From: a virus
Lineage: Duplodnaviria > Caudoviricetes
Reading direction: 5' to 3' (one strand)
Virus record (IMG/VR): IMGVR_UViG_3300037424_000877
Location: 1-57,335 of that record
Length of the DNA: 57,335 nucleotides
Position 1 is the first letter of the stretch. Every line of letters starts with the position of its first letter. The translations under genes and the position numbers were made by a program. This document shows positions 1-57,335 of this stretch, one piece after another. Below the pieces are notes generated by a model. The model saw only the letters and a list, made by a program, of their open reading frames with translations, ran no database searches and was not told where the DNA came from.

Positions 1-114
1 GCCCTCGAGGTACTCGGCCTGCGCGTTTTTCTCGGCCTCGAGCTCCGTTGCGCCGAGCGCCCACACTACATCATTTGCCCCGTCCGTCCCGATTGCTGCG
101 TATTGTTTTGCCAT
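1..114 (-). CDS. hypothetical protein, truncated at window edge (MAKQYAAIGTDG...)
   Basis: ATG at 114 preceded by AGGAGG; frame open to position 1. Confidence 0.55.
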   Translation of the reverse strand, partial: MAKQYAAIGTDGANDVVWALGATELEAEKNAQAEYLEG

Positions 115-151
115 CTCATCCTCCTGCTGTTTGCGTTGCTGCGTTGTGGGG

Positions 152-481
152 TCAGGCGGCCAGCTCTCGGCGAGCTGTCTTGATTGCGCCAGATCGATAG
201 CCAGCGTTGTAGTCGCGGCAAGCCTCGCGGAACGCTGGCCCGCGGCTCTCGCACTGACGCAGAGTGATACCTAGTTCGTCGGCCAAGTCTTGGCCGTTGA
301 GAGCGTTTATCAGCCCAGAGTCGGCCTCTTCTTGACCAGCGGCAAACCACGACTCTACGTCTTCGCGGCTAGCTCTTACGTCTGGGTCTCCTATTGTAAG
401 CTCGTCTGTGACCCGCGTTTCTCCGTCGTTGTACCCGCTGCGGTAGGCCTTGCTCTTTTTGTTGATTTTTGAATTTGCCAC
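152..481 (-). CDS. hypothetical early-type protein
   Basis: 109-aa ORF, GAGG upstream, promoter-like element at 534-562. Confidence 0.7.
   Translation of the reverse strand: MANSKINKKSKAYRSGYNDGETRVTDELTIGDPDVRASREDVESWFAAGQEEADSGLINALNGQDLADELGITLRQCESRGPAFREACRDYNAGYRSGAIKTARRELAA
168..258. repeat. 91-bp exact direct repeat, copy 1 (copy 2 at 57245-57335)
   Basis: CGGCGAGCTGTCTTG...CGCACTGAC identical at both sites. Confidence 0.95.
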
Positions 482-3439: not shown

Positions 3440-3539
3440 GGCTATGACCATACGTTGCACTGCACTGCACTACGTTGCGTGACAATACACTGCACTGCAC
3501 TGCACTACGTTGCGTGACAATACACTGCACTGCACGCAC
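3440..3539. repeat. tandem TGCAC pentamers / ~35-bp duplicated unit
   Basis: (CACTG)n-CACTACGTTGCGTGACAATA twice; begins with a 19-mer shared with 55299-55317. Confidence 0.9.
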
Positions 3540-3960: not shown

Positions 3961-4031
3961 CTTCTTCGACCGCTCGGCTGATTAGCTCGTACCAGTTGGG
4001 TTCCACAGCCTAACATGGTACACTAGAAGGT

Positions 4032-4298
4032 ATGAAGAAGCTAGCGCTGTTGGTAGCAGGGGCCGTGCTGGTCGCCTGCGGCGGGGACGTTAAGTTCCCG
4101 AAGACCGAGGACGTATACAAGGCTGCGTACGAGGCCGTAGAGGCTCTCGAGGCGCATCCTGGAGTGTCTGAGTACGTGGAGAAGGCAAAACAGGCCGTCG
4201 CCATCGCTCAGTCAGTCTGTGACCAGTTGCCCGAAGGTGGCGCAGCCGACCCGGTGTGTGCCGAAGTCGACAAACTGGCCGACGCCCTGAAAGAGTAA
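4032..4298 (+). CDS. lipoprotein (spanin-like or exclusion protein)
   Basis: MKKLALLVAGAVLVA-C lipobox; helical mature region. Confidence 0.75.
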   Translation: MKKLALLVAGAVLVACGGDVKFPKTEDVYKAAYEAVEALEAHPGVSEYVEKAKQAVAIAQSVCDQLPEGGAADPVCAEVDKLADALKE

Positions 4299-4301
4299 GA
4301 C

Positions 4302-4332
4302 GGGCGCCCCCTGGTAACCCCGGGGGGCGTTC
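4302..4332. terminator. GC-rich hairpin between convergent genes
   Basis: GGGCGCCCCC...GGGGGCGTTC. Confidence 0.6.
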
Positions 4333-4702
4333 ACTTCACCAAACGCAGATGGCTGGGCCGCTTCGAGGCGGCCTTTTTCGCAGGCGCGTCTTCTGGAGCA
4401 TCGTCCTTCCAGATCTTGCCCATGCCGTCCTCGGTGACCATAGCGAAGACAGACTCCCAGGGGACGGAGCACGGACTCGGCCTCCCTCCGAAGGACAGCG
4501 TGCAACTGAAACCGTCATCGGTTACGTGGAGATCGTGTATCGGGCGCGCGAGGTTCAGACCTAACTGCAAGCACAGTTTACGGTCATTTTGGAACTGGAG
4601 CGGGACCTGCACGCCCTTGTGGCCGGGCTTCAAATGCACGAACACCGAGTTCGACTGCTGCAACATCCAGCCGATCAGATCTCGCTTCTCGTCGTTTTTC
4701 AC
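4331..4702 (-). CDS. sspB: ClpXP specificity-enhancing adaptor SspB
   Basis: GVQVP...LQLGLN...FSCTLSFGG...VPWESVFAM core; C-terminal RPSHLRLVK resembles the ClpX-binding tail; GTGA overlap. Confidence 0.85.
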   Translation of the reverse strand: MKNDEKRDLIGWMLQQSNSVFVHLKPGHKGVQVPLQFQNDRKLCLQLGLNLARPIHDLHVTDDGFSCTLSFGGRPSPCSVPWESVFAMVTEDGMGKIWKDDAPEDAPAKKAASKRPSHLRLVK

Positions 4703-5262
4703 TTGATCCCAGCTTCTCGACACCTCGACTTGAACACCCTCTCCTGTTCCGAATAGGACAGCTTCAGGATCTGATCGAACGTGCCCTCGCGAGCAGGCGG
4801 CACGGGGTGCTCCCATAGAGATCCGTCTTCGCAGATCAGCCCGTCGTGCTCCCAGTTCGCGTTCGGCCAGAACTGCTTCATCTCGTGGATGAGTAGCTGC
4901 TTGTCTGCGACGTGGATTGCCTCGTCCTTCCCGGGTGTCAGACCGAAGCGTTCGTAGATCACATTCTGGACGGTGTCTTCCAAGATCCTATACTGGTCGC
5001 CCACGAAGCTGTGCTTCAACTCCCGGTGCATGTCTCCCATGAAAGCCTCGGAAGCGTCATGGAGAAGGGCCTTCGGGTCGTTAAGCAGGTCGTAGATGAT
5101 CACACTGTGATATGCGACCGAGTAGTAGAACGGGCAGTGGTTCGTGTACCGAGGTTGCATGAGCCCGGCCGTTACGTCCTCGAGGCAGATGTCCTCGGGA
5201 CGTAAGTTGAGCAGGTTGACGAGCTTTCCTGAACGGAGGATCTTGCGAATTGGTTTGGTCAT
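4699..5262 (-). CDS. HD-domain 5'-deoxynucleotidase (YfdR/YfbR-like)
   Basis: RYTNH...YSVAYHS...ALLHDASEAFMGD...AD motifs. Confidence 0.85.
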   Translation of the reverse strand: MTKPIRKILRSGKLVNLLNLRPEDICLEDVTAGLMQPRYTNHCPFYYSVAYHSVIIYDLLNDPKALLHDASEAFMGDMHRELKHSFVGDQYRILEDTVQNVIYERFGLTPGKDEAIHVADKQLLIHEMKQFWPNANWEHDGLICEDGSLWEHPVPPAREGTFDQILKLSYSEQERVFKSRCREAGIK

Positions 5263-5648
5263 GGTTGCACCTTGATGAACTCCGCGACGACTGCGGCGAC
5301 GGTTTCGCGAACATGTTCCAGCGACTTTGGTTGGTACTTCAGCACATCACATACCCGATCTGCGATCATGGTTGCGATGTCCGCCGGGTCGCCGGTGCTG
5401 TTCGCACTGCGGCCGATCACCGAGAGCGCCGCAGAGTCGCGCAAAATAGCGTCTGTTACGGAGGGTGCCACTCCGTATTTCTTGAACGCGTAGTTCGTGA
5501 CCTTCCCGAACTGTCGGGCCTTGTAGACAGTCAGAGTCACATTCCCGCACCCCGGGCACGAAGCCGAGTAGCACGTCGGGCAGCTCTTGCAGTTCGGATC
5601 GTTCAGGTCAGCAGTTCTTCCAGGTTCGTTTTTCGACATCGTTTTCAT
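5259..5648 (-). CDS. Cys-rich hypothetical protein carrying an in-frame tail-fibre repeat unit
   Basis: CKSC, CPTC, CPGC; contains SVTDAILRDSAALSVIGRSANSTGDPADI. Confidence 0.7.
   Translation of the reverse strand: MKTMSKNEPGRTADLNDPNCKSCPTCYSASCPGCGNVTLTVYKARQFGKVTNYAFKKYGVAPSVTDAILRDSAALSVIGRSANSTGDPADIATMIADRVCDVLKYQPKSLEHVRETVAAVVAEFIKVQP
5376..5463 (-). repeat. ectopic 88-bp copy of tail-fibre gene segment 25204-25291
   Basis: 85/88 identical; 3 mismatches, all synonymous. Confidence 0.95.
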
Positions 5649-7908
5649 CCTTCAGGTTTCGTTCTCTGCACCATTGTTTCAGTTGCTCGGCCGACTCGTT
5701 TCTCTCGTACCCGGCCCAGCTGTCAAATGAAAGGTGCCACAGTCCGTTGTTTCTTTCAACTGCCCCAAGTCGTTTTGTGTACCTTCGAGCAGTGCGTGTG
5801 GTCAATGTTCCAACCGTATTGGAAAGGATTGCCCTGATTCGGAACACTATGCCGGTTTCGTTGACGAAAGGCGCGTCGAGCCCATCGACCATGCCGTTCA
5901 GCGTCCGGCTGACCATCTTGCGCAGAGCGGCCAGGATCTGCAACTCGGGGCCTTGCTTTACGGTCGGTCCCATCGACTGTTCGACGATCGCCGACAGCTC
6001 GTCAGGAAGAGTGAAGCGCCCGTATTGCTTGAACGGGATCGCCTCGACGAGCAGTCGGAAATGAGACAGCACCTCGGAGAAGTCCTTTCGCTCCGGTACG
6101 ACTTTGGCTGCTTCCGGATCGATGAAGATCGGGAACAGTCGCGACGCAGCAGCGGACAGCCCACCGTCGTTGATCATCGCAGCGTAGTTGTCGCACCAGT
6201 CGAGGTTATTCGAGGTCACGATCACTCTGCAACACCCATCAATGCGGGTGACGGGTCGGCCCTTCTGCTCGGTGCGCATCGAAGGGGAGGTGACGAGCCG
6301 CTTCAAATCTTCGATCGAGCTCTTGTCGTGCAGATCGTTCGCTTCGTCCTTGACGATGATCGGGCAATGCATGAGCTCTGCGTTGAATCGTTCGGTGGCA
6401 GATTCGATGTCGATTGCACCGTTCTTCGAGTACAGACTGCCTACGGCTGCGAGGAATAAGCTCTTCCCTGTGTTCTTCTCACCCATCAATGCGAGCAGGT
6501 TGTCCGGTGCGGTCAAGTCGCTCAGGTTGGCGATCCACTGACACAGGTAGGCATATCGGTCGCCAGCAAAGACCTTCAACCAGTTGTCGACCATCTTGCT
6601 GAACACAGGGACAATCTCATCGCGAAGCTTAACGCAGTTCACGCGGAGGTTCGGTCGCTCGGTGTCGTCTGGCCAGTCGAAGGTGGTCGGTCCGTACGTG
6701 TACGTGATTTCTTTGCACCCGATCCCGTACATCTCGAGCAGTTGCGCAGGCGAGATCAGTTTACCTTCGGCGGTGCTCAGGACAATGTCCGGTCGGAAGC
6801 GCGATGTCTTCAGCGACGGGACCGTGGAACTGTCGAGCACGATTGGAGCGTAGCCAGACATCTCGAGCCGGAATACGTCCGAGCCCGACGTGTAGGCGAA
6901 CCAGTACCGATTTGTCTTCAGGTCCTCTATCGGGAAGCCAACGACGTCCGCGATGTCGAGCAGCTGTTGCTCAGTGTAGGATGTCGCGAGCTCTTCGGCC
7001 ATCATAGCGGCGACAGCGCGCTCGGAGTTTTCGCTGCGAACGCGCGCCCATTGCGACAGGAACTGTGCCTGCGTCGGCGCGCCGTCGGTGGCCTCTAGCG
7101 AATCTTTGAAGAATACATACAACCGCTCGCCCGAGACCAGGGGCAGACGGGTCTTCAGCGCGCCCAGGAGCTCGAACAGAAGCCCGTTTCGTCCCCCTTC
7201 TTCGCTGTACGGTCGGCCCTGAAGCACCAGAGACAAGACCGAGGCCAGCGCTTGCTGCTTCTCGTTCCGGACCCGCTTAAGGGCGGCTACGGCGCGCACC
7301 AGGTCCCGGCGCTCTAGAGGCAAGGTGGCGGGCAGATCTGCTGCTGACGGGGCCGGTGCGGCCGGCGTTGGTGCTTTTGCGGGCGCGGCTCCGGGTGTCT
7401 CCTCCAGGGCGCCCCAAGACAGGATCTGACCCGACCCCCGCTTAACGTCCTGCGGCGCGCCTTTAGGGCTGCTGGGCAGGTAGTACCAGCGGCAGACGTC
7501 TTTACATGAGGGATCGATGTCCGGGGCCAGTCGGGCTCTCAGGTCGCTCCAGACGCCCTTCCAGAGCACGGCTGGGACCGGACGGTCCAGTGGCAACACA
7601 ACTCTCCACTTCGGGGCCTCCTTCGTGTGTGACCAGGTCGTGTGTGCGATGAAAGTCAGTTCGGAAAAGCGGGACCAATCCGGCGTCCCCTGGTCGAAGT
7701 CTAGGACCAAGCAGCAGATCTCGGAGACAGCGGCGTTCTCGTGTCGGGAGCCCTCTTTCAGCGCGTACGGCGACCAAAGCGGGCACTGGTCTTTCTGGAC
7801 GTAGTTCTTGAACGCGGCTAGGACCTGCGTCAACTGCCACCAAGTGCCGACGGTCGTCGACCAGTCTTCCGGACGGTAAAGCGACGGAAAGACGGTCCAA
7901 TTAAGCAT
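5608..7908 (-). CDS. primase-helicase (AEP-type primase plus SF3/DUF5906-like helicase)
   Basis: LVLDFD, HTTWSH, WRVVLPLDRPV, DPSCKD; Walker A GEKNTGKS; DE and SNN motifs. Confidence 0.85.
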   Translation of the reverse strand: MLNWTVFPSLYRPEDWSTTVGTWWQLTQVLAAFKNYVQKDQCPLWSPYALKEGSRHENAAVSEICCLVLDFDQGTPDWSRFSELTFIAHTTWSHTKEAPKWRVVLPLDRPVPAVLWKGVWSDLRARLAPDIDPSCKDVCRWYYLPSSPKGAPQDVKRGSGQILSWGALEETPGAAPAKAPTPAAPAPSAADLPATLPLERRDLVRAVAALKRVRNEKQQALASVLSLVLQGRPYSEEGGRNGLLFELLGALKTRLPLVSGERLYVFFKDSLEATDGAPTQAQFLSQWARVRSENSERAVAAMMAEELATSYTEQQLLDIADVVGFPIEDLKTNRYWFAYTSGSDVFRLEMSGYAPIVLDSSTVPSLKTSRFRPDIVLSTAEGKLISPAQLLEMYGIGCKEITYTYGPTTFDWPDDTERPNLRVNCVKLRDEIVPVFSKMVDNWLKVFAGDRYAYLCQWIANLSDLTAPDNLLALMGEKNTGKSLFLAAVGSLYSKNGAIDIESATERFNAELMHCPIIVKDEANDLHDKSSIEDLKRLVTSPSMRTEQKGRPVTRIDGCCRVIVTSNNLDWCDNYAAMINDGGLSAAASRLFPIFIDPEAAKVVPERKDFSEVLSHFRLLVEAIPFKQYGRFTLPDELSAIVEQSMGPTVKQGPELQILAALRKMVSRTLNGMVDGLDAPFVNETGIVFRIRAILSNTVGTLTTRTARRYTKRLGAVERNNGLWHLSFDSWAGYERNESAEQLKQWCRERNLKDENDVEKRTWKNC

Positions 7909-8269
7909 CGTCCCGCCGTTGTCGTTGGGCGATCATTTCGCGTGCTTGTTGTCGTGGTATTTTGCGCCGCACTCGAGCGCGCGCTCTTGCCAAGATTGAC
8001 ATCGCATTTTCTGTCGTCCAAAGACTGTGGACGAAACGTTGTATCGATTTCGATCCTCGTTTCGAGTTACATCGCAAACAAGCCGTCAGTAGGTTCGAAG
8101 GAAGGTGCGAACCTCCGCGTGCGTGAGGGACAACGTGGTCGAGAGAGAGCAGACACTCGGCGTCGTCTTCGATTGATCTTTCGCAGTAGACACAAGAGAA
8201 ACCGTCTCGTATATAGATCGCCAACCTGGTTGTTGGCCGAATCCACTTGCTTCCGTTTGACCAGCTCAC
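7901..8269 (-). CDS. HNH endonuclease
   Basis: RDGFSCVYC...LDHVVP...GG...NLLTACLRCN. Confidence 0.9.
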   Translation of the reverse strand: MSWSNGSKWIRPTTRLAIYIRDGFSCVYCERSIEDDAECLLSLDHVVPHARGGSHLPSNLLTACLRCNSKRGSKSIQRFVHSLWTTENAMSILARARARVRRKIPRQQAREMIAQRQRRDDA

Positions 8270-8772
8270 CAAACCTCCACGAGTGCGCCACGTCCGACGG
8301 CGTAGGCGATCATCTGCGCGTCGCAATCGTCTTCGTCGGGAGACCAGTCGACTGTTTTATGGTAGGCCTTTGCGCGGTTCTGTGCAACAGTTTTGTCGAC
8401 GTTCGCCGGAAGATCGAACGCTTTTCGGTGCTCGGCGATGTCGATCCAACAGGCCTTTGCGCTGAACGTGCCGGCAGCCGCCCCGAGTAAGTACCCCGCG
8501 CGCATAGCACGGACCGTCACGCCTTTCTGGTGTGTGGTCAGCGGGCGTTCACATATGATCGTCTTCGGTGCGATGATCATATCCGGAGTGAGCAGTTGGA
8601 GGTCGCTCACCGGGGACATCCGGTAGCAGAACCCTGCCTTCTTCCCCGGATCAATGCAGAGGACAGGGTAGTCTTGGGCGGTCAGGACAGTCCGAGTCGA
8701 CGCCTTTTTCGTTGCGCGCCGCTGTCTACGATCGACGACTGATTGCGCTTTCTTCAGTTTATCAGATCCCAT
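8266..8772 (-). CDS. RuvC-like Holliday junction resolvase
   Basis: LCIDPG...ICERP...DDCDA acidic motifs. Confidence 0.65.
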   Translation of the reverse strand: MGSDKLKKAQSVVDRRQRRATKKASTRTVLTAQDYPVLCIDPGKKAGFCYRMSPVSDLQLLTPDMIIAPKTIICERPLTTHQKGVTVRAMRAGYLLGAAAGTFSAKACWIDIAEHRKAFDLPANVDKTVAQNRAKAYHKTVDWSPDEDDCDAQMIAYAVGRGALVEVW

Positions 8773-10652
8773 ATCCCGGTCTCCTTGCAGCGCACGCACG
8801 GCGTTTTACCGCCGTCAGGGCTTTTGATCACACCGTGTCCGTAACACACAGGACAGCAAACAGCAAGTCGGCCGTCCGCGTGGGTCTTGTGAATACACCT
8901 CTTGCTCCAGTGGGTCATAGCAGCGTATTCCGCGCGCATGACGACGTCCGGGAGCAGGTGATCCCTCTTTGGGACCTCGCACATTATTCGTTGCAGTTCG
9001 CGAGCCCCTTCGTCTAGTTTGTCCAACGGGATCTCGAGCATGAAGTCGTCGTGTGCGAAGTTGACCATGTGGGAACCCCACAGCGGGCTCTGCTGGTCGT
9101 AGGCGGCCCACATGACCTCCCACCCGACGTTGGCCTCCACGACGGCCCCGAGCGACTGGAACGGGTGGTTGTGGGCCGCACAGAACGTCGCCCCGGAGCG
9201 GACGATTGTCGTCCCCGGGATCTGGACATAGAACAACTCATTTTGATCGGTTGGGTGCTGTTCGATCCAGTTAAAGTAAGGCCAGGCCTCTTTTCGGGTC
9301 CGGAGCCAGATGTTCTTGAGGTCCTTCGACTCGTCGATTCCGATCAGTGTGCGATACTGCGTTTTTGCCGCGATGACTAGCCGCTCGGCGCCCATGCGCC
9401 CAGGCAGACCGTAGTTCGCGACCTTCCCGCACTGTCGGGCCTTGTACCCCTTGGCGCCGTCGTCTTTCATCTTGACAGCGTCTTCGTAGGAGCAATGCAG
9501 GATCTCAGCCGCGATCTCGCAATGGCAGTCGAACTTCTTGTTCAGCTTGTCTGCGAGATCCCGGATCCCTAGGTTCGTGACGCAGACCTGCGCCCAGGTG
9601 CAAAGCTCGAGACTCGCGTGGTCGCACGGGACGAGCGCATATCCGTCGCGCGCTCGGATACACTCTCGGATCCCCTCTTTCGACCTCAGGTTCTGCAAGT
9701 TGGGCCGGCTCGAGGTCGTGCGGAACGTGTCTGCGGTCCCGTATTTCGTGTGGATCGGATATTGCGTCCCTGCGCTGAGCAGCTTTACGTCGGCTTTCTT
9801 GACTTTGCTCCACTCTCCATACTCTGCGAAGAGCTCGAGGATCGGATCCCCCGACTCGGTCAGTGTGACGTGATCCGTTTTCGGCTGACCGGTGGGTGTC
9901 GTTGGCGGGTGGCCGCGGTAGGCCTCCGAGACCACGGCCTTGATTGCAGCCATGCACCGGGTGCCGTCTTTACGTACGAATCCAAGTTCCTGCACCTCAG
10001 CTGTCAGGAAAGACAGGTGCTCGTCGGCGGCTTGTTCCAGCTGCGACACCCTTTCCGGATCCGTCCGGAGTCCGTACTGTCTGGTGTTGTTCAGCCAGAG
10101 CTTCTCTCGGGCCAGCAAGGCCACGTCTTCGAGGTGGACGTTCGAGTTCCGCTCTAGTTGACGGTTCCAGGTGCGCAGGGTCTGGTCACCGTCCCCGAGC
10201 AGGTAGGCCATGTGCTTTTCGCTGTAGTCGGACAGCGGTCGGTTGTAGTACTGATCGAACGTTGTTCGAATCATCAAGTCCTTGTCCATTTTCGGAAAGC
10301 CGTAGCGCTGCGACACGCTGTCGAGTGACAGGTCGCCTCTAGGCTTCCCCTGGATCTCCGCGATGCGCTCAAAGGCCCACCCGCACAGAACGCGAGTCTC
10401 CTCATAGGCTCTCTTGATCAACGGCCGCAGTTCCGGGTACCAGACGATCGCGCACATCATGTCGTAGTCGATCGTCCAGCCGACGATCGTTCGGTTCGAT
10501 AGCAGTTCTCGCGTCCGTTCGAAGACCTCAGAGGTCGGGAACGCGATCGGACTTCCCGGAACCTCGCAAAGCACTCCGCACACGATCGGCGGGCACATCA
10601 GCCCCGGCTGGAACCTGAAAGTTTCGTAGTCGAGCGAGACGAAGTCGGTCAT
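8754..10652 (-). CDS. polA: family A DNA polymerase with 3'-5' exonuclease domain
   Basis: LDYET exonuclease motif; RTTSSRPNLQN; CDHASLE (A); RQCGKVANYG (B); AHDD (C). Confidence 0.92.
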   Translation of the reverse strand: MTDFVSLDYETFRFQPGLMCPPIVCGVLCEVPGSPIAFPTSEVFERTRELLSNRTIVGWTIDYDMMCAIVWYPELRPLIKRAYEETRVLCGWAFERIAEIQGKPRGDLSLDSVSQRYGFPKMDKDLMIRTTFDQYYNRPLSDYSEKHMAYLLGDGDQTLRTWNRQLERNSNVHLEDVALLAREKLWLNNTRQYGLRTDPERVSQLEQAADEHLSFLTAEVQELGFVRKDGTRCMAAIKAVVSEAYRGHPPTTPTGQPKTDHVTLTESGDPILELFAEYGEWSKVKKADVKLLSAGTQYPIHTKYGTADTFRTTSSRPNLQNLRSKEGIRECIRARDGYALVPCDHASLELCTWAQVCVTNLGIRDLADKLNKKFDCHCEIAAEILHCSYEDAVKMKDDGAKGYKARQCGKVANYGLPGRMGAERLVIAAKTQYRTLIGIDESKDLKNIWLRTRKEAWPYFNWIEQHPTDQNELFYVQIPGTTIVRSGATFCAAHNHPFQSLGAVVEANVGWEVMWAAYDQQSPLWGSHMVNFAHDDFMLEIPLDKLDEGARELQRIMCEVPKRDHLLPDVVMRAEYAAMTHWSKRCIHKTHADGRLAVCCPVCYGHGVIKSPDGGKTPCVRCKETGIWDLIN

Positions 10653-10897: not shown

Positions 10898-10909
10898 AGG
10901 CACACACAG

Positions 10910-10983
10910 AGCCGGTCGCAGGATTCGAACCCGCATCGCCTCGATTACAAATCGTGGGCTCTTCCTTGTTGAGCTAGGCCGGC
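10910..10983 (-). tRNA. tRNA-Thr (anticodon TGT)
   Basis: GCCGGCC-TA-GCTC...GAGC, loop TT-TGT-AA, T-arm GCGGG-TTCGAAT-CCTGC; two stem mismatches; no encoded CCA. Confidence 0.88.
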
Positions 10984-23143: not shown

Positions 23144-25929
23144 TATGTGTTGGTTGCTCTTCCGGTTTCGAACCAGTTCGATCCGGTCTTGACAAACTGT
23201 GTTGTGTTCTCGTTAGACGTGTGTGTTCGATCAGCTGCTGTGTCCAGTCTGATGTTACCGGTAGCGTGCTTAAAAACCACATCGCGCGCGTCAGAAGTCG
23301 TCAAGAACGTGACTGTCTGTCCGTCAACTCCTCCGCTGATCGTGACCAAATCGTCTGTTGCCGCAGCTCCTTCGGTGTCGACTTGCACAAGCTGTGTCCA
23401 GGGACTCGTGATCGTGATTGCGCCTGCGGAAATGGTGAGGGTTTCTTTGAACGTGGTCGGGACGACCGCATCGGAGGGGATTGTCCCGAATCCGAGTGTT
23501 GTCCCACTGACCCGCAGGACCTGACCGTCGGTACCCGCAATGACGGCAAGATCTGCGGTCGCGTTCGTCGGATTGCCGATCACACTTAACGCTGCGGCAG
23601 TCACGAGCGCGTTCAGTGGCGTTCCGGAAGTCAGCCCGACCGCGAGCTCCAACCACTCAGAGCCAACTTTAATGAAGGTCGCTGTGTCGCGCGTGGCCGA
23701 AAGAACAAGGTCGGCTTTCCCTGTTGGGCGGATGTTGCCGACGCGGCGGACCGTGATAGTCGCCAAGGGAACGGCGCGAATTGTCAGGATCTGCCCGCTG
23801 ATCCCGCCGGATATGGTGTCGAGATTATCAGATCCTGCTCCACCTTCGGTCGACACCGCCGCGCTACTCGCTGCGGCAGTTGTGACCGAAATGGATCCTG
23901 CACTAATTGTTACTGATTCGTTATAGAGTGGGAAGACAGAGGCGGACGAAATAGTCCCGAACCCGAGAGCTGTCCCGCTGACCCGGAGCACCTGACCGTC
24001 GGTGCCCGCAATGTCTGCTGGCACACCGGTGCTGTTAGCGCTGCGTCCGATGACCGAGAGCGCGGCGCTGTCTCTTAGCCCCGCACTCGCAACCGTCCCG
24101 AACCCGAGAGCTGTCCCGCTGACCCGGAGCACCTGACCGTCGGTGCCCGCAATGTCAGCCGGTACTCCGGTGCTGTTCGCACTGCGTCCGATGACGGACA
24201 GCGCAACCGAGTCACGAAGCTTAGCACTGGTGACCCCGGCGTCTGCGATCTGGATCGAGCCGTCGGCGGAATGTCCGAGACCCCCCGTGGGGCGGAGAGC
24301 GCGGCTGACTTCGTACCAGGTCGATCCGCGTTTTTGAAATACAATTTGTTCAGCAACGGCGAGTGATGTAAATGACGCATCCAGTACCGAAGACAAATTC
24401 CCACCGCCAACACTATTATCACGATACTGCACATCACGCGAAGAAGAAGTCGGCTGAAATATCGCGATCTGACCTTCCGCCCCTCCATTAATCGTGTCGA
24501 GATCGTCCGTCGCCGCAGCGGCTTCTGTGTCGATCAATACTCGAACAACGGGTGTTGTGCTGACGATCGTGATCGCCCCGGCCGCGATGGTGAGGGTCTC
24601 GACGACCGGGGAGAGCGCAGGCCCTACGATCGCTGCGGCCTGCGCGGCGGTAAGGTCTTCTGGGTCCCCGGTTCCGGCGGTCGTGCGGCCCTTGATCGTC
24701 TGGGTCGCCATGTTCGCGGCTTTGGGGTTAGTGACCGCGTCGTCGGAGATCCCCGCCGTCGCGACCGTCCCGAACCCCACTACCGATCCGGACTCTCTGA
24801 GGACAGCACCGCTCGCGGCAGTCGTGCTGATGTCAGCCGGCACTCCGGTGCTGTTCGCGCTACGACCGATCACCGAGAGCGCCGCACTATCCCTAAGCTT
24901 CGCGCTGGTGACCACACCGGCCGCGATCGTGGTCGCGTTAGCACCTGCCGACGCCGTGACATCACCGGTCAGTGCCGATCGACGGATGGTCTGAGATCCC
25001 GTGAACTCGAGTCCGCCCGTCACGCCGATCAGTTCCGGATCGCCACTTGCAGCCGTGTCCCGACCGATCAAAACGTCTGTGACGATGTCCTGGATCTTCG
25101 CAAGTGTCACCGCATTGTCTGCGATCCCCGCCGTCGCGACCGTCCCGAACCCTACTACCGATCCGGACTCTCTGAGGACAGCACCGCTCGCGGCAGTCGT
25201 GCTGATGTCCGCCGGGTCGCCGGTGCTGTTCGCACTGCGTCCGATGACCGAAAGCGCCGCAGAGTCGCGCAAAATAGCGTCTGTTACGGAGTTGTTTGTG
25301 AGCCCAGCACTGGCAATCGTACCAAACCCGAGTGTCGTCCCGCTAACCCGGAGCACCTGACCGTCAGTACCTGCGATGTCCGCCGGCACTCCGGTGCTGT
25401 TTGCGCTGCGTCCGATGACGGACAGCGCTGCCGAGTCTCTTAGCCCCGCACTCGCAACCGTCCCGAACCCGAGAGCTGTCCCGCTGACCCGGAGCACCTG
25501 ACCGTCGGTGCCCGCAATGTCTGCTGGCACACCGGTGCTGTTCGCGCTGCGTCCGATCACCGAGAGCGCCGCAGAGTCCCTAAGCTTCGCACTGGTGACC
25601 ACACCGGCCCCAATGACCGACGTGTTGCTGCCCGCCCCGACGGAGACGTCTCCGGTGATCCCGCTGCGCTGAAGCACCCCCGAACCGTTGAGCTCGATCC
25701 CTACGCCGATCGAAATCTCTTCTACCGCGCCGTCGCCGGGCGTGTCGCGCCCGAGCAGACGATCGGTCTGGATTGAAGACGAGCCGCTTGCGAGAGCGTT
25801 CTTTAGGAAGCGCGTACGGTTGGCGAGATCCTGAAGACCTGCGCGAACCGACTCGGCCGTGGCAAGCGTGAATGGATCTGGCGCTGTCGTGGTTTCTGCG
25901 AACTCGGAGACGTCTGTCAGCTCACTCAT
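23143..25929 (-). CDS. repeat-rich tail fibre protein
   Basis: LQDLANRTRFLK N-terminal fibre motif; six DSxALSVIGRSANSTG repeats plus one degenerate; three xTEGxAxxDxLxTIxGG domains. Confidence 0.8.
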   Translation of the reverse strand: MSELTDVSEFAETTTAPDPFTLATAESVRAGLQDLANRTRFLKNALASGSSSIQTDRLLGRDTPGDGAVEEISIGVGIELNGSGVLQRSGITGDVSVGAGSNTSVIGAGVVTSAKLRDSAALSVIGRSANSTGVPADIAGTDGQVLRVSGTALGFGTVASAGLRDSAALSVIGRSANSTGVPADIAGTDGQVLRVSGTTLGFGTIASAGLTNNSVTDAILRDSAALSVIGRSANSTGDPADISTTAASGAVLRESGSVVGFGTVATAGIADNAVTLAKIQDIVTDVLIGRDTAASGDPELIGVTGGLEFTGSQTIRRSALTGDVTASAGANATTIAAGVVTSAKLRDSAALSVIGRSANSTGVPADISTTAASGAVLRESGSVVGFGTVATAGISDDAVTNPKAANMATQTIKGRTTAGTGDPEDLTAAQAAAIVGPALSPVVETLTIAAGAITIVSTTPVVRVLIDTEAAAATDDLDTINGGAEGQIAIFQPTSSSRDVQYRDNSVGGGNLSSVLDASFTSLAVAEQIVFQKRGSTWYEVSRALRPTGGLGHSADGSIQIADAGVTSAKLRDSVALSVIGRSANSTGVPADIAGTDGQVLRVSGTALGFGTVASAGLRDSAALSVIGRSANSTGVPADIAGTDGQVLRVSGTALGFGTISSASVFPLYNESVTISAGSISVTTAAASSAAVSTEGGAGSDNLDTISGGISGQILTIRAVPLATITVRRVGNIRPTGKADLVLSATRDTATFIKVGSEWLELAVGLTSGTPLNALVTAAALSVIGNPTNATADLAVIAGTDGQVLRVSGTTLGFGTIPSDAVVPTTFKETLTISAGAITITSPWTQLVQVDTEGAAATDDLVTISGGVDGQTVTFLTTSDARDVVFKHATGNIRLDTAADRTHTSNENTTQFVKTGSNWFETGRATNT

Positions 25930-34663: not shown

Positions 34664-37219
34664 TCAGAGCCAGCCTTGAGACAATCCCGGGGATCCGGTT
34701 GGGGTGTTGGCCGGCGGGACGAGCCCGAGCCAGCTGTGTGTATTGATTAAACCGGTCCCGTTTAACACGGCTTGGAGCGACAGCTGTGCTTGAACCACGG
34801 CTGTCAGAGCTGCGTCACCGGTGAGGTTGGCTTGGACAGACAGCGAGGCCGCAATCGTTGTGTTTAGCGCACCAGATTGCTGTTCCAGTATTGCGTCAAT
34901 CGTAAGCACGGCCGGTACAGACGCGCTCAGCGCACCGTCCGCCGTCAAGACTCCGGTCGTGGTCTCTACTGCCGCAACCGTCGCCTGCAGCGCACCGTCG
35001 GCCGTCAGGACTCCGGTTGTGGTCTCTGCTGCCGCAACTGTGGCCTGCAATGCACCGTCCGCCGTCAGATTCGCTTGAACAGACAGAGAGGCCGCCACCG
35101 TTGCTGTCAGGTCCTGTTCCAGGAGCCCCGAGACAGTCAGCACCGCCGGTACAGACGCGCTCAGCGCACCGTCCGCCGTCAGGACTCCGGTCGTGGTCTC
35201 CGCTGCCGCAACCGTGGACTGTAGCGCACCGTCCGCCGTCAAGACCGCCGACACAGCTCCGACAGCCGACACCGTGGCTTGCAACGCACCGTTAGCCGTC
35301 AGGACTCCGGTCGTGGTCTCTGCTGCGGCAACCGTGGCCTGCAACGCACCGTCTGCTGTCAAAGTCGCGACTATGCCTAGAGCCGACGAAACAATAGCCG
35401 TCAGGTCCTGTTCCAGCAGCCCCGAGACAGTCAGCACCGCCGGCACGGACGCGCTCAGTGCGCCGTCGGCCGTCAAGGTTCCGGTCGTGGTCTCTGCTGC
35501 GGCAACCGTGGCTTGCAACGTACCGTCGGCCGTCAAGGCTCCGGTCGTGGTCTCCACTGCGGCAACCGTGGCCTGCAACGCACCGTTCGCCGTCAGGACT
35601 CCGGTCGTGGTCTCCACTGCGGCAACCGTGGCCTGCAACGCGCCGTCGGCCGTCAGGACTGCGGTCGTGGTCTCTACTGCCGCAACTGTGGCCTGTAACA
35701 CACCGTTCGCCGTCAGGACTGCGGTCGTGGTCTCCACTGCGGCAACCGTGGCCTGTAACACACCGTTCGCCGTCAGCACTGCGGTCGTGGTCTCTACTGC
35801 CGCAACCGTGGCCTGCAACGCACCGTCAGCCGTCAGGACCGCCGACACAGCTCCGACAGCCGACACCGTAGCCGACATATCGCCTGCGGCAACCGGCGCT
35901 ATCACTAGCGTCGTTAGAGCAACACGCAGTGATGCAGTTATCGTGTGTACGACTGACTGTGCGCCGGTCTGTGTAGTCAACCCCTTTGCCCGGCACTCAA
36001 ACCAGGCGCCACCAGTCGCCATTGAACAGGCGCCACGGGGGACGCCGGTAAACCCTGCAATCGTGTGGCTCACGACGGTCCAAGCAGGGTTGTTGTTATA
36101 GGCGAGACTAAGTATCAGGCAATCTGCTACCGCAACGGGGCTCGCAGTCGCTGAGGTTGCAACCGCTGACGCGGCGTTCGCGACGTCCGACAGATTCGCC
36201 GACTGATCTGCATTCTCGACGCAAATCGCTTGCGTGTACGCCGCCGCACTACCTCCCGCGATGCTGACGACTATGTTGTTGGCTCCGTCCGCCGGCAGAT
36301 CAGCTTCCCTGAGCTCCCACCACACGATCTGCATGATGTTATCGCCAATGACGTCGGCCGTGTCTGTGCCGTCCGTGCATTTGGTCATCGATACGCCGCC
36401 GTACGTGACGGAGCTGAACGTAACGCCGGTAGTGCCCTCGGTCCCGGTGCCAACGAATAAACGGCGATTGCCGGCGGTTCCGGCGTCCAACGTAAACGAG
36501 TTGGTGAATGGCCCAGCCCCGGAAGCGTTCTGGTAGCTTTGTGATCGCAGGATCGGGATCGCGTGCGCCGTTTGCGCAGTGCGCACCGCGACGGTCGCGG
36601 CTGACCATTGCTCTGTTGCGCGAGTTGTGGTGCCGGGATTGTCGGAACCGGCGGTCAGCTCTCGCTCGCTGACCAGCTGTGCACAACGATTTGTGGTCGT
36701 TGCGTCTGTTGTTATCTGGAGCGCTTCGCTCGAATTTACGCCATAGCTTGTCGAGTCCGCCGTAAACGCGACGTTCTCGTCGCCGCCCGCGTGCTCAATC
36801 CACAGCGTGTCCTCTGTCGCCCAGTCCGCTGGGTCCAGATTCGGCGGGTCAGGGTTTGTAGAGTTGCCCGAAGACAGCGCAAACGCAGGCGCAGTGTTGG
36901 GGTCAAACCCTGTGATCCGTACGGTGCGAGCGCACCAGTTTTCGGACGCTCCCGTAATCGAGAGCGTGCCCTCGTTCCCGTTTGCAATTTTGCACAACGC
37001 CCAGATATACGACGCTGCCGTGCCACCAGACACTTGCTGATAGAGTGGCGTCCACCCTATCATCGCGTCGCCATACGTAGGCGCAGCTGAGCCGTCCTTG
37101 GTGAAGAACGCTAACAGTAAGTCGCCAAGTGCTATTGACGCTGGAACGCTAGCAGTGTACGTCGTCGCGTTCGCCGACGCTACGTTCGAGTTACGGGTTG
37201 GGACAGCCGGAAAAGTCAT
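34664..37219 (-). CDS. large fibre/adhesin-like virion protein with ~20-aa tandem repeats
   Basis: two beta-rich N-terminal domains; many ADGALQATVAAxETTTxVLT repeats. Confidence 0.7.
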   Translation of the reverse strand: MTFPAVPTRNSNVASANATTYTASVPASIALGDLLLAFFTKDGSAAPTYGDAMIGWTPLYQQVSGGTAASYIWALCKIANGNEGTLSITGASENWCARTVRITGFDPNTAPAFALSSGNSTNPDPPNLDPADWATEDTLWIEHAGGDENVAFTADSTSYGVNSSEALQITTDATTTNRCAQLVSERELTAGSDNPGTTTRATEQWSAATVAVRTAQTAHAIPILRSQSYQNASGAGPFTNSFTLDAGTAGNRRLFVGTGTEGTTGVTFSSVTYGGVSMTKCTDGTDTADVIGDNIMQIVWWELREADLPADGANNIVVSIAGGSAAAYTQAICVENADQSANLSDVANAASAVATSATASPVAVADCLILSLAYNNNPAWTVVSHTIAGFTGVPRGACSMATGGAWFECRAKGLTTQTGAQSVVHTITASLRVALTTLVIAPVAAGDMSATVSAVGAVSAVLTADGALQATVAAVETTTAVLTANGVLQATVAAVETTTAVLTANGVLQATVAAVETTTAVLTADGALQATVAAVETTTGVLTANGALQATVAAVETTTGALTADGTLQATVAAAETTTGTLTADGALSASVPAVLTVSGLLEQDLTAIVSSALGIVATLTADGALQATVAAAETTTGVLTANGALQATVSAVGAVSAVLTADGALQSTVAAAETTTGVLTADGALSASVPAVLTVSGLLEQDLTATVAASLSVQANLTADGALQATVAAAETTTGVLTADGALQATVAAVETTTGVLTADGALSASVPAVLTIDAILEQQSGALNTTIAASLSVQANLTGDAALTAVVQAQLSLQAVLNGTGLINTHSWLGLVPPANTPTGSPGLSQGWL
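34800..35880. repeat. ~60-bp tandem coding repeats
   Basis: GCCGTCAGGACTCCGGTCGTGGTCTC...GCAACCGTGGCCTGCAACGCACCGT units. Confidence 0.9.
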
Positions 37220-37281: not shown

Positions 37282-37713
37282 TTAGTCGAGCGTGAAGTTC
37301 AGCTCACCGATAGCGAACTTGGGAGTTATCCCAGACGAGACCGCCAACGACGCGCCGAGTGCGCCGGACGCGAGCAATTTACCGGCACCAGATGACGCGG
37401 TCCCTGCCCCGACATGCGTGATCGTGTTCGAACCGCCGGTACACGCAGGGAACGCTACCTCTGCGTCGTTGTCGCAAGTGCCTGATGTCACAGTCCAACC
37501 AGATGTAGTCCGCGCGACTGCAACTCGAGCATAGGACGTATAAGTCGCTTCAGAGGTCGTCTGGTCACCGGCTTCGCCTGGATCTGCTGTGTGTAGCGAG
37601 ATGTAGATATTGGTGATCGGAGACGTAGCGGCATTGTCGGCAATGTTCGCAATCGCGGTCGCTGTGAAAATCAACGACAAGATGTCGTTTTCAAATGTGT
37701 TCTGCCAACTCAT
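37282..37713 (-). CDS. small virion structural protein (fibre-associated)
   Basis: YISLHTADPGEAG....E..Y..YAR..V motif common in small phage structural proteins. Confidence 0.7.
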   Translation of the reverse strand: MSWQNTFENDILSLIFTATAIANIADNAATSPITNIYISLHTADPGEAGDQTTSEATYTSYARVAVARTTSGWTVTSGTCDNDAEVAFPACTGGSNTITHVGAGTASSGAGKLLASGALGASLAVSSGITPKFAIGELNFTLD

Positions 37714-41425: not shown

Positions 41426-41971
41426 TCAAACCGAAGACGATCCCGAGAGCGAGACGCCTAAAATACGGTGTGTTGCGGCCGGACAGCAGTCGATTAGCCA
41501 GACGTCATCCACTTCTACGCCTAGGCGTTTTGAGCGTACTTTTGCTTTCTTGAGCAGTGTGGCAAGGAAGTCTTCGCCGGTCAAGATCTCTTTCATCGCA
41601 GTCTGGGGTACCAGCTTAGAAACCGGACCGCACAGCACGTCGTTCAGAACCGTGTCGCTGTCCGCAAGGCCGAGGATGTACTTGCGCGAGTCTACAACAC
41701 GGTGAGCCATGCCTAGCTTTAGTGAGACCTCACGCCCGTCGTTCGTGAAGAGAGACTGAATCGAGAGTACAGAACTCTGAAGCGCAGCCGACTCTTTCTG
41801 CGCTTCGTGCATGAACGGGCACTTCCAGTTCCAGCCGTGTTTCATCGGTTTGCGATAGATTTTCCACTTCCGCGTGTGTCCTATCTCGTCGTCGCCGAGA
41901 ACGAAAAACGGCATGATCAACCAGAAGTAGTGCTTGATGAACTCGGCAAACTTTTCGAACAGCGCGCTCAC
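41426..41971 (-). CDS. SPFH/band-7 domain protein
   Basis: GWNWKCPF, QSLFTNDG.EV, HRVVD, LGVEVDDV. Confidence 0.75.
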   Translation of the reverse strand: MSALFEKFAEFIKHYFWLIMPFFVLGDDEIGHTRKWKIYRKPMKHGWNWKCPFMHEAQKESAALQSSVLSIQSLFTNDGREVSLKLGMAHRVVDSRKYILGLADSDTVLNDVLCGPVSKLVPQTAMKEILTGEDFLATLLKKAKVRSKRLGVEVDDVWLIDCCPAATHRILGVSLSGSSSV

Positions 41972-44213: not shown

Positions 44214-45162
44214 TTGTTGTCACCCATCGTTTCGAGAACCAGTTACGATCGAAGTACCCGCCGTGCTGCGGGATCGGGTTCTGTTGCAGTTGCGCGGAGG
44301 CCTCCCCTCCTAGGCTGTTCTCGAGTTCTGTCACCGAGGCCTCGGTCCAGCGTTTATCGAGAAGCTCGCCGGGGGCCGTGCGAGGGTCCTTCAGCTTCTT
44401 CGAGAGCGACGATCCCCGATCCCAGTAGATGTGCGGGTCGTAGCGCATCGGCAAACACAAGTGTTCGAACCCGTGGTCAAGAGCCCAGCCGGCCAAATCC
44501 ATCTCGTGCAGGCGCTGCATGACGATGACCCGGCGGAAGAACTCCGGCTCGCCGTTGATGCGCGAGGCCAGCGTCTTCGAGAACCAACGGATAACGAGCT
44601 TCAGGCGGTGCCGGCTCTTAGAGTCCTTGTCCCCGGGCTTGATCGGATCGTCGATGACCTGCGCGTCGGAGCCGTGACCCACGGCCTTACCATCCGGCGT
44701 CGAAGCGAAGCGGCTACCGCCAGCCGTGTTGGCCATGTTGGTGAACGCAACCACCCGCGGCATGCGCACCTCGGGGTAGGCGGCTTCGTGCAGAGGATCG
44801 CTCAGGACCTCATTCATGCGCCGCGCGTCGCGGATACAGATCAGCTTGTCGCCCGAGCCGTACAGCCACGAGAACTTCGGGGTGATCGTCGCCCAGTGCC
44901 AGCTTGGCCACATGACTCCGGTGACAATCGATTTCGAGTTCCTGGGTGGGAGTGTGATCACCAGGTTCAAGACGTCCCCGCGGCTCACGGCTTCAAGGTA
45001 TTCACAGAGGAAATCCACGTGCCAGTTCGAGCGGAACGTCGAGGTCGGATCTGCAATCCGCCACCACTCGGCCGTGTACGCGCGGAGACCTCCACGCTTC
45101 ACATTCTCTCTGACGATCTCGGCTTCGTGATCTAGGACCTCGGGGTCCTCATCCTGCGTCAT
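44206..45162 (-). CDS. terL: terminase large subunit, N-terminal ATPase part
   Basis: NWH, PPRNSKS (Walker A), VIDDP, VMQRLH..DL.G, QLQQNP. Confidence 0.88.
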   Translation of the reverse strand: MTQDEDPEVLDHEAEIVRENVKRGGLRAYTAEWWRIADPTSTFRSNWHVDFLCEYLEAVSRGDVLNLVITLPPRNSKSIVTGVMWPSWHWATITPKFSWLYGSGDKLICIRDARRMNEVLSDPLHEAAYPEVRMPRVVAFTNMANTAGGSRFASTPDGKAVGHGSDAQVIDDPIKPGDKDSKSRHRLKLVIRWFSKTLASRINGEPEFFRRVIVMQRLHEMDLAGWALDHGFEHLCLPMRYDPHIYWDRGSSLSKKLKDPRTAPGELLDKRWTEASVTELENSLGGEASAQLQQNPIPQHGGYFDRNWFSKRWVTTSG

Positions 45163-45445
45163 CGCTCGTCTTCCGTTTATTCCGGTATTCGACAATATCG
45201 ACCGCCGGTATGACAGCAAAAGACACAGGAGTGTGCTCTGTCCCACATGATACTCGGCGGCACGTCCGACAGGTGCCGGATGTCACAGTCCAACCAGCCG
45301 TGGTCCGCGCGACCGAGACTCGAGCATATGACTTATAGGTCGCTTCGGAGGTCGTCTGGTCACCGGCTTCGCCTGGATCTGCGGTGTGCAGCGAGATGCA
45401 GACTAGCCCAGTCGCTATTTCAAATAAGTCGCAATTAACTCGCAT
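45149..45445 (-). CDS. small Cys-rich ORF carrying an in-frame copy of the 37282..37713 core
   Basis: MRVNC...ISLHTADPGEAGDQTTSEATYKSYARVSVARTTAGWTVTSGTC...CRRVSC. Confidence 0.6.
   Translation of the reverse strand: MRVNCDLFEIATGLVCISLHTADPGEAGDQTTSEATYKSYARVSVARTTAGWTVTSGTCRTCRRVSCGTEHTPVSFAVIPAVDIVEYRNKRKTSDDAG
45270..45402 (-). repeat. ectopic 133-bp copy of 37475-37607
   Basis: 118/133 identical by manual alignment; 11 of 15 differences synonymous. Confidence 0.95.
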
Positions 45446-45623
45446 CGTCGTACCTGACCTGCTCAATCAACCAAGCGATCTGATGCTCGGTCCCGATCAC
45501 TCCACGGTCGTCGTTATACTCAAAGAACTCCAACTGCTCGTAGTTCTCGCGTCGCCAGAGACGATATTTAACAAGGAAAGCCGGACCGTTTTCGGTCGCG
45601 TCCCATGATCTCGATACAGCCAC
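45435..45623 (-). CDS. hypothetical protein
   Basis: 62-aa ORF in operon. Confidence 0.55.
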   Translation of the reverse strand: MAVSRSWDATENGPAFLVKYRLWRRENYEQLEFFEYNDDRGVIGTEHQIAWLIEQVRYDDAS

Positions 45624-56377: not shown

Positions 56378-56603
56378 GACGCTCCCCGTCCGATCCGACG
56401 AGCGACGCTCCCACGCGACCCCGCAACGCGGGGTCTAGTGCGAGTTCGACCGCCAACTGCTCCCCGAGCGCCACCAGTTGCCCTACAGTGAGCTTGTGTG
56501 CGTCAGGGGTCACCATGAGTGCCAGGCCGACCAGGGACGCTTCGAGGCGCCGTGAGCGCTCGGCAATCGCGGTCAGCGCCCGGATGGCGCCATGGGCGCT
56601 CAC
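56361..56603 (-). CDS. hypothetical protein
   Basis: GTGA overlap with upstream gene. Confidence 0.55.
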   Translation of the reverse strand: MSAHGAIRALTAIAERSRRLEASLVGLALMVTPDAHKLTVGQLVALGEQLAVELALDPALRGRVGASLVGSDGERPTIRP

Positions 56604-57136
56604 CTCGACACCTGGTGAACAGCAGCCAAACTGAACAAGGAATCAGCGTGGGACGCGAGAATAGGCGCCTCGTGTGCGAGCGACGGTAGCAAATCTCGCC
56701 AATCAGCGACACTGTGTGTGTGACATCCGATTGTGACTACATCGTCGCAGATCGTGACGTGAAACTCGCCTAGTCCGGTCAGATAGATCGGTGATCGCGA
56801 GGCACTGCCGCACACTAGGGCATCGCCGTACACCAGGGCATCGCCGTACACCAGGGCACGGTCGCACACCAGGGCATGGCCGTACACCTGGGCATGGCCG
56901 TACACCAGGGCACGGTCGCACACCCGGGCACGGTCGCACACCAGGGCATGGTCGCACACCAGGGCATGGCCGTACACCCGGGCACGGTCGCACACCAGGG
57001 CATGGCCGTACACCCGGGCATCCGGACCGACATATGCGCTGTCGTCCACGTGAGCAGTGTCGGCTACCCATCCACTACCATTTATGTGCCTGTGAGCAGC
57101 GACCGGACCACACCCAAAATCAAATTGCGTTGTCAT
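56600..57136 (-). CDS. left-handed beta-helix (hexapeptide repeat) protein
   Basis: AHRH.NG.GWVADTA then AxVxG/D hexapeptides (18-bp repeats) and IGC. Confidence 0.8.
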   Translation of the reverse strand: MTTQFDFGCGPVAAHRHINGSGWVADTAHVDDSAYVGPDARVYGHALVCDRARVYGHALVCDHALVCDRARVCDRALVYGHAQVYGHALVCDRALVYGDALVYGDALVCGSASRSPIYLTGLGEFHVTICDDVVTIGCHTHSVADWRDLLPSLAHEAPILASHADSLFSLAAVHQVSR

Positions 57137-57244
57137 TTCAATTCCTTCCGTTGTCATTTCAAAAGATCTGCGTAACCATCTACGCAACGTGGGGCGTGTT
57201 GCTCCGGATCGGTGTGTTACAGATTGCGTGAAGGGACCAGAAGC

Positions 57245-57335
57245 CGGCGAGCTGTCTTGATTGCGCCAGATCGATAGCCAGCGTTGTAGTCGCGGCAAGC
57301 CTCGCGGAACGCTGGCCCGCGGCTCTCGCACTGAC
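57245..57335. repeat. 91-bp exact direct repeat, copy 2 (copy 1 at 168-258)
   Basis: identical to 168-258. Confidence 0.95.

Follow-up and report, generated by a model that had tools for sequence, protein, structure and literature searches.

Segments of a tail-fibre gene and a polymerase gene copied into a small open reading frame at a gene boundary of a phage genome

How does a piece of a tail-fibre gene come to lie, still in its own reading frame, within a small open reading frame (ORF) some 20 kb from that gene? The question is raised by the viral DNA of IMG/VR record IMGVR_UViG_3300037424_000877 (Duplodnaviria; Caudoviricetes), which was analyzed here over its full 57,335 bases (the window). 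The small ORF, at 5259..5648 on the minus strand, lies between a primase/helicase gene and a phosphatase-like gene. A first-pass annotation made from the sequence alone had reported the fibre piece in this ORF and suggested a capture of virion-gene segments into small ORFs. We find that the ORF holds copies of two of the phage's own genes, and that its body is absent from the one record of a relative that covers the site. The locus is most likely a recombination scar and not a dedicated system.

A BLAST comparison of the window with itself aligns 5376-5463 with 25204-25291 without gaps, at 85 of 88 positions (E 1e-36). Both copies read in frame on the minus strand, as residues S63-I91 of the small ORF and residues 215-243 of a 930-amino-acid (aa) gene. 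They are translated into the same 29 residues and all three differences are therefore synonymous. These are found at 5412 (G in the small ORF, T in the fibre gene), 5418 (C and G) and 5424 (G and A). The small-ORF letters at 5418 and 5424 are those of the fibre units at 24829 and 25516. The G at 5412 is present in no fibre unit. Three more bases, 5373-5375, match other fibre units (25372-25374) and not the unit at 25204. As the letters at 5418, 5424 and 5373-5375 resemble other units, the donor appears to have been a slightly different allele of the 25204 unit. The copies are direct and 19.8 kb apart. The first-pass annotation was thus correct about the 88-base match, its three synonymous differences, two of them shared with another fibre repeat, the distance of 20 kb, and the common strand and frame.

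Of a 47-residue repeat unit, the fibre patch comprises roughly the first 30 residues (~60%). Using a profile made from 21 fibre units, residues 61-99 of the small ORF align to columns 15-53 of 70, with the second half of the unit missing. A complete DUF5907-type repeat (PF19264) is not found in the small ORF, which has no Pfam match. The edges of the patch are abrupt. DNA identity next to it drops to about 8 of 20, and residual similarity of the flanks to the fibre unit is not significant (54 of 1000 flank shuffles reach the real profile score). The donor gene itself is only weakly DUF5907-like (PF19264, E 0.016), short of the Pfam cut-off, and a PDB sequence search with it gave no match. Its motif recurs in proteins annotated as tail fibre, so the label is reasonable by context and not as a family match. 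A literature search for DUF5907 found no paper.

Self-comparison also revealed a patch that the first-pass annotation had overlooked, in which 5489-5525 match 9410-9446 of the gene for family A DNA polymerase (polA) at 35 of 37 positions. The patch encodes YKARQFGKVTNY and polA encodes YKARQCGKVANY, both differences changing a residue. The polA stretch YKARQCGKVANY we take to be motif B (O-helix). This patch lies 25 bases from the fibre patch in the same ORF and its ends are likewise abrupt. Read in the coding direction, the ORF consists of 43 bases over the 3' end of the primase gene, in another frame, followed by an 80-base Cys-rich tile, the polA patch, a 25-base spacer, the fibre patch and a 105-base tile (Table 1). 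A 7-base inverted repeat (TACGGAG...CTCCGTA on the plus strand, with a 7-base loop) could form a hairpin at 5457-5477 that straddles the right edge of the fibre patch at 5463/5464. This could be a trace of snap-back synthesis or a product of chance, the odds of the latter being about 1 in 100 by a post hoc estimate.

Table 1. Coordinates of the small ORF, its parts, their counterparts and the adjoining genes in the window.
Feature	Position	Strand	Remarks
Small ORF	5259..5648	-	129 aa from ATG 5648; stop overlaps ATG of next gene (ATGA)
ORF body, 338 bases	5268..5605	-	Absent in close relative, where 9 other bases join 5267 to 5606
Cys-rich tile, 80 bases	5526..5605	-	No detectable source; coding score in ORF frame 0.03 per codon, ambiguous
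Copy of presumed polA motif B (O-helix)	5489..5525	-	35/37 to 9410-9446
Spacer, 25 bases	5464..5488	-	No detectable source; CTCCGTA (plus strand) is the inverted last 7 bases of the fibre patch
Tail-fibre repeat copy	5373..5463	-	Encodes SVTDAILRDSAALSVIGRSANSTGDPADI(A); 5376-5463 85/88, 5373-5375 match other units
C-terminal tile, 105 bases	5268..5372	-	35 residues; no detectable source; 0.28 per codon, coding-like in ORF frame
Tail-fibre-like gene, 930 aa	23143..25935	-	Repeat units of 141 bases (47 aa); flanked by baseplate wedge genes; donor unit 25204-25291
Family A DNA polymerase gene (polA)	8754..10652	-	Donor of 37-base patch, 9410-9446
Primase/helicase gene	5608..7908	-	DUF5906; PHROGs DNA primase; last 41 bases overlap small ORF
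Deoxyribonucleoside 5' monophosphate phosphatase-like gene	4699..5262	-	Immediately downstream of insert
Second ectopic copy, 126 bases	45273..45398	-	Gp80-type conserved core; in ORF 45149..45466, between 62-aa ORF and terminase gene
Resident Gp80-type virion gene	37282..37713	-	PF23140, E 6e-25; 37478-37603 is the counterpart of the copy

We examined whether the joins are supported by reads. Sequencing run X1 holds 87% of the sampled words of the window and is probably its source sample. One X1 contig (record 1, 1883 bases, depth 7.42) covers 5000-5405 and another (record 6, 2679 bases, depth 7.41) covers 5434-5900, each with 0 mismatches. Each extends 30 bases past one junction of the fibre patch, at the depth of the flanks, and record 6 includes the entire polA patch with both of its junctions. 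Since contigs enter the fibre patch from both sides, words that span the junctions exist in the reads. Support for the insert thus comes from re-assembled contigs crossing both junctions of the fibre copy, one junction per contig, and the fibre copy is very unlikely to be an assembly artefact. The contigs break at branch points of the 31-word graph because the patch shares words with the fibre gene. All three X1 contigs over 5412 read T and none contains 5406-5433 with the small-ORF letters, which we take as the loss of one of two near-identical paths when the contigs were built.

Relatives of the window were not found in the viral contig, metagenome contig or phage collections searched; they are known from pieces of sequencing runs and from three proteins of 92-95% identity. 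One such piece, from a run of another study (X2 record 8, 151 bases, depth 2), covers the locus. It matches 5606-5712 at 107 of 107 positions and 5233-5267 at 33 of 35 (2 mismatches), with nine other bases between the two sides. This relative lacks 5268-5605, and 16 bases lead from its primase stop to the start of the phosphatase-like gene. In the window, 2 bases separate the missing stretch from the primase stop (5608-5610), and 5 bases separate it from the ATG at 5262. The evidence for the absence is good but thin. When proteins are clustered at 90% identity, the products of the small ORF and of the ORF at 45149..45466 are the sole members of their clusters, whereas the phosphatase-like, polA and Gp80-type proteins each have two members, the second from another assembly (92-95% identical). 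This is consistent with the absence of 5268-5605 in the relative. With no counterpart of the ORF body in the relative's record, the fibre copy looks like a one-off, which by the first-pass annotation's own standard counts against a capture system.

The fibre patch differs from its own fibre gene at 3 of 88 positions, versus 7 of 58 and 8 of 87 for the fibre pieces of relatives in runs X2 and X3. The polA patch shares NY with the polA gene of the window while a 94%-identical relative has NF. Both patches therefore appear to have been copied from genes of their own lineage, and recently.

Homologues of the small ORF were also sought. It belongs to no Pfam (E<=0.01) or PHROGs (E<=1e-5) family. 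A search of 5.8 billion protein clusters gave 39 candidates, 20 of which passed: its own protein and 19 foreign ones. The foreign matches cover 22-50% of the ORF, and the fibre motif is in all 10 of those inspected. For the N-terminal 61 residues there were seven matches among 1.84 billion representatives, one of them the protein of the window itself. The other six are long repeat proteins with 5-14 matched stretches each; in P0024, the one that was aligned, the match falls on a repeated SCPTC stretch. The C-terminal 40 residues had no match among longer proteins, and a PDB sequence search with the small ORF returned designed helical repeat proteins only. Apart from the fibre motif we thus found no homologue of 5259..5648, and the one record of a relative is without the ORF body. 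The 'replication-module' protein of the first-pass annotation is for the same reasons not established. Nor is its 'Zn-finger' borne out, as there is a CxxCxxC-x4-CxxC pattern without a Pfam or PHROGs family or a confident fold. By eye, the Cys-rich part lacks the His/Asn pattern of HNH nucleases. A single-sequence fold of the ORF is not interpretable (mean pLDDT, the predicted local distance difference test score, of 57; below 50 over residues 1-42).

Sources for the remaining three tiles were also sought. Within the window, words of 12-14 bases from the 80-, 25- and 105-base tiles are repeated at background level (a median of 10 repeated 12-mers per 450 bases), and tblastn of the small ORF against the window gave the two patches only. 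Two exact-pattern scans of a genome contig library for sources of the tiles had no match. A 39-base piece of X2 (record 9) resembling 5269-5307, with 4 mismatches and 2 gaps, was rejected as a donor as the likeness is within chance for the size of the run.

The first-pass annotation had also pointed to a second case at 45270, and it is real. Positions 45273-45398 match 37478-37603, in a Gp80-type gene, at 113 of 126. The Gp80-type family is very large (4229 matches) and the ectopic copy is its most conserved core. Outside the patch, the flanks of the ORF at 45149..45466 score -0.32 and -0.17 per codon by the codon usage of this phage, and are non-coding-like; genes of the phage average 0.32 (sd 0.16) and the 95th percentile for off-frame sequence is 0.11. 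These flanks add nothing to the score against the Gp80 family profile (398 of 1000 flank shuffles reach the real score). At nine of the ten third codon positions that differ, the ectopic copy has G or C and the resident gene A or T. The resident gene has a G+C content at third codon positions (GC3) of 0.62, below the 0.70-0.78 usual in this genome. Such a pattern is not expected from simple neutral decay. A diverged functional allele of a related phage is the more likely donor; alternatively, the copy may have been under selection. The second patch looks older, or derived from a foreign allele, and sits at another gene boundary in non-coding-looking sequence. Fibre and Gp80-type pieces do, then, sit in frame in small ORFs as the idea of virion-gene capture has it; that the capture is limited to virion genes does not hold, given the polA piece in the first ORF.

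Together, self-comparison yields three significant ectopic patches with abrupt edges (E 1e-36, 1e-8 and 2e-35 for the fibre, polA and Gp80-type patches), that is, inter-gene patches of 88, 37 and 126 bases in 57 kb. Far pairs number 0, 0, 1, 0 and 1 (29 and 36 bases) in five phage records surveyed for comparison. These total 238,191 bases, two being complete and three the first 50 kb, with two from the same genus. The window is richer in patches than this convenience set, a sample too small to give a rate.

We consider it probable that the small ORF arose as a multi-fragment filler at a gene boundary, which illegitimate recombination or serial template switching pieced together from short copies of genes of this phage, and that the resulting chimeric ORFan is dispensable in the relative. 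A lineage-specific filler of 338 bases would have entered precisely where the primase gene stops and the next gene starts. Of its five tiles, at least two would be recent copies of own genes, 91 bases from the fibre repeat and 37 from polA motif B, made during replication or break repair. We infer that the stretch was inserted here and not lost from the relative. The filler may have survived as it lies at a gene boundary and is open in one frame, the open frame perhaps reflecting a filter against untranslated gaps inside an operon. The outcome would be a chimeric ORFan of 93-129 aa, perhaps translated and probably without a dedicated function. Two juxtaposed donors, sharp edges, the boundary site, the absence in the relative and the non-coding surroundings of the second patch all fit this explanation.

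Several observations weigh against it. All three patches are sense and in the frame of their donors, for which random chance is about (1/6)^2 to (1/6)^3. All three are also the most conserved cores of their families, namely the fibre motif LRDSAALSVIGRSANSTGDPADI, polA motif B and the invariant Gp80 block, a coincidence that a scar leaves unexplained. Of the 13 differences in the 126-base patch, 10 affect third codon positions. The 105-base tile (5372-5268) scores gene-like in frame at 0.28 per codon, the Cys-rich tile (5605-5526) has a GC3 of 0.81, and a plausible ribosome-binding site precedes ATG 5639. The 7-base inverted repeat is the only feature seen at the junctions. The scanned ORFs yielded no gene for a reverse transcriptase, Ku or LigD. 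The X1 contigs cannot place both junctions of the fibre patch on one molecule, and X1 is not independent of the window. The absence in the relative rests on a single 151-base record of depth 2, found at a likeness threshold of 85.

The signs of coding would suit a small accessory gene that was there before the patches, a moron-like ORFan whose product would have a Cys4 knuckle at the N-terminus and a helical C-terminus. Such a gene could later have received the polA and fibre segments by conversion, with the relative having never had it or having lost it. Besides the coding-like 105-base tile and the GC3 of the Cys-rich tile, the ORF has start signals, with GAAGG 9 bases upstream of ATG 5639 in a 126-aa form, and a stop that overlaps the next start. 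The collection's own gene call (P0001) also reads a protein here, though one of 93 aa from GTG 5540 that begins after the Cys-rich part. The frame stays open right up to the next gene. However, the closing TGA belongs to the ATGACC of the next gene and so the overlap is uninformative. The parts outside the patches are without a homologue among the 5.8 billion clustered proteins or the 1.84 billion representatives, and the flanks retain no similarity to the fibre unit that might have seeded conversion (54 of 1000 shuffles; about 8 of 20 DNA identity). We regard a pre-existing gene as unlikely. Nor does the ORF look like an autonomous moron, a simple consensus scan of 4000-8000 having found no promoter-like or terminator-like site on the minus strand.

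A functional chimeric protein is less probable still. In this reading the fibre and Gp80 cores would make the products dominant-negative or decoy peptides, or tag them to virions, whether those of the phage itself or of a co-infecting one. The sense orientation, frame and conserved cores of all patches would be accounted for, as would the three silent differences of the fibre patch, the third-position differences of the Gp80 patch and the excess of patches over the five comparison records. However, the silent differences include variants already present in other fibre units and can stem from the donor allele. Only about 60% of a fibre unit was copied, and it is not plausible that 12 residues of a polymerase helix have a role of their own. 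The relative lacks the ORF, the flanks of the ORF at 45149..45466 are non-coding-like, and the single-sequence fold is of low confidence. A role as donor, decoy or tag, as the first-pass annotation had suggested, is supported by none of the results: the fibre differences are silent, the unit is partial and the flanks of the second case look non-coding.

We give very little weight to a role at the level of nucleic acid, in which the patches would donate sequence to the fibre repeats by conversion, anchor recombination, or yield RNA or DNA guides that target conserved genes in competing phages. The patches are 37-126 bases long and of 90-97% identity to conserved gene cores, and the fibre gene is itself a mosaic of converted units. 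As a donor, however, the fibre copy would convert nothing in the protein since all three of its differences are silent, and deletions would be favoured between direct repeats at a distance of 19.8 kb. Between 4000 and 8000 the scan gave a single promoter-like and a single terminator-like site, both on the plus strand, where 0.8 and 3.8 are expected by chance. Rfam has no RNA family at the locus, and the template/variable repeat rule of diversity-generating retroelements does not apply to it.

Equally far-fetched at present is the idea that the phage repeatedly copies conserved cores of essential genes and keeps them sense and in frame as an interference device against co-infecting relatives. 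The cores would come from the phage itself or from close relatives and be placed in ORFs of the early region or at boundaries, to act as dominant-negative peptides or nucleic-acid guides. If true, the same process would generate new genes by in-frame shuffling of gene fragments.

An artefact of assembly or sequencing, by a chimeric join through the repeat or by chimeric molecules, is hardly credible. In its favour, depth is low (~7), 31-mers of the patch also occur in the fibre gene, and the patch is not spanned whole by any re-assembled contig. Against this, contigs of 1.9 and 2.7 kb with 0 mismatches and flank-like depth enter the patch by 30 bases from each side and break exactly at the branch points that the 31-word graph requires, the G at 5412 is in no fibre unit, and the polA patch with its junctions is inside one contig.

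We also compared the locus with known systems. In phage genome mosaics, the nearest parallel found is gene 68 of mycobacteriophage Island3, an 85-aa ORFan absent in Brujita whose last 18 residues duplicate the end of the neighbouring gene (PMC3029335). Like gene 68, the small ORF is homologue-less, at a gene boundary, absent in a close relative, and carries a short duplicate of the same genome at the nucleotide level (PMC3029335). In Island3 the duplicate is from the end of the adjacent gene and is readable as a crossover site (PMC3029335). The small ORF, unlike gene 68, has two internal in-frame patches with donors 4 and 20 kb away, neither of them at the edge of the insert. The insert shares two traits with the mosaic indels and ORFan insertions of tailed phages, for which illegitimate recombination is the model: it is present or absent between relatives with conserved flanks, judged from the single depth-2 record, and its edges fall at the ends of genes.

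In yeast and human cells, templated insertions made of several fragments have been described (PMC8421209, PMC11724301). Like these, the insert sets short tracts from the same genome side by side; their edges are sharp, and one junction bears a short inverted repeat. Of the five tiles, two can be traced to donors in this genome (85/88 and 35/37) and are 25 bases apart, and three have no donor in the window. Unlike the insertions formed in yeast and human cells by microhomology-mediated break-induced replication or polymerase-theta-type end joining, the tracts here are all sense and in frame. Our literature search found no templated insertions of this kind described for phage genomes.

Three other systems were considered and rejected. 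Diversity-generating retroelements have template and variable repeat pairs in phage tail-fibre genes, and the fibre copy resembles these in being a copy of a fibre segment of about 90-130 bases elsewhere in the genome in the same orientation. However, PHROGs searches of 53 ORFs and Pfam searches of 8 + 40 ORFs, which did not take in every small ORF, gave no reverse transcriptase family. On the coding strand the differences are C/A, G/C and C/T, so that at most one of the three is at an adenine with either copy as template and on either strand. In addition, the counterpart is internal to the fibre gene (residues 215-243 of 930) and not at its 3' end. Phages of the Mu/P1/P2 type have fibre cassettes or invertible segments that adjoin the fibre gene, inverted and flanked by invertase sites, and provide alternative C-termini. 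The window is like them in having extra partial fibre-gene sequence. Here the copy is direct and distant (19.8 kb) and corresponds to part of an internal repeat, with no sign of an invertase. Nor does the insert resemble a transposon: where it joins its flanks (5267/5268 and 5605/5606), neither a target duplication nor terminal inverted repeats can be made out by eye.

The record looks complete, with a G+C content of ~59% and nearly all genes on the minus strand. By PHROGs and Pfam, its virion module is of the myovirus type, with sheath, baseplate hub and wedges, tape measure, portal, protease and terminase. Its replication module contains the primase/helicase, family A polymerase, exonucleases, a helicase and the phosphatase-like gene. 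The terminase large subunit is encoded by two abutting minus-strand ORFs within 43509-45246; ORF 44206..45246 matches positions 269-534 of the PHROGs profile and ORF 43509..44213 matches 534-703. A frameshift, a sequencing error and a real split are all possible. A protein with an SPFH/Band 7 domain (41426-41971, minus strand) is encoded between the portal and protease genes. A single tRNA-Thr (TGT) is at 10909-10983 on the minus strand.

Near the small ORF, 4331-4816 on the minus strand encodes an SspB-like protein (PF04386, E 1.7e-11), a homologue of a ClpXP adaptor in the early region. Just downstream of the locus, an 88-aa ORF at 4032-4298 on the plus strand, one of the few likely genes on that strand, has a lipoprotein-like start (MKKLALLVAGAVLVACGG) and a GC3 of 0.72. 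At 3445-3514 are two 35-base direct repeats in tandem, 91% identical and apparently intergenic, that may be regulatory or origin-like.

At the ends of the record, 168-258 and 57245-57335 are the same 91 bases exactly, the match running off the end of the record, and the first 167 bases differ from 57078-57244. A frame open at its 5' end (56600..57334) is in phase with ORF 66..350, over the end regions 1-350 and 57036-57335. The end match and the phased frames suggest that the genome is probably circular or permuted, with a beta-solenoid repeat gene running across the ends. Within this YdcK beta-solenoid repeat gene is a tandem array at 56765-57088 with a period of 18 bases and 13 registers. 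Two more arrays are found at 53434-54009 (15-base period, ~26 registers) and at 34851-35895, where 60-base repeats lie within an 851-aa gene (34664..37219).

For annotation, the locus is a warning that a strong family motif in a small ORF can be a copied fragment and not a domain. It reveals no new system, and its significance is limited unless the bias towards sense, in-frame copies of conserved cores proves general across phages. If the small ORF did arise as a filler, it would be a clean and datable example of the birth of a phage ORFan. It would then bear on the origin of the many small phage genes that have no homologues, and on whether the template-switch 'templated insertions' described in eukaryotes also shape phage genomes.

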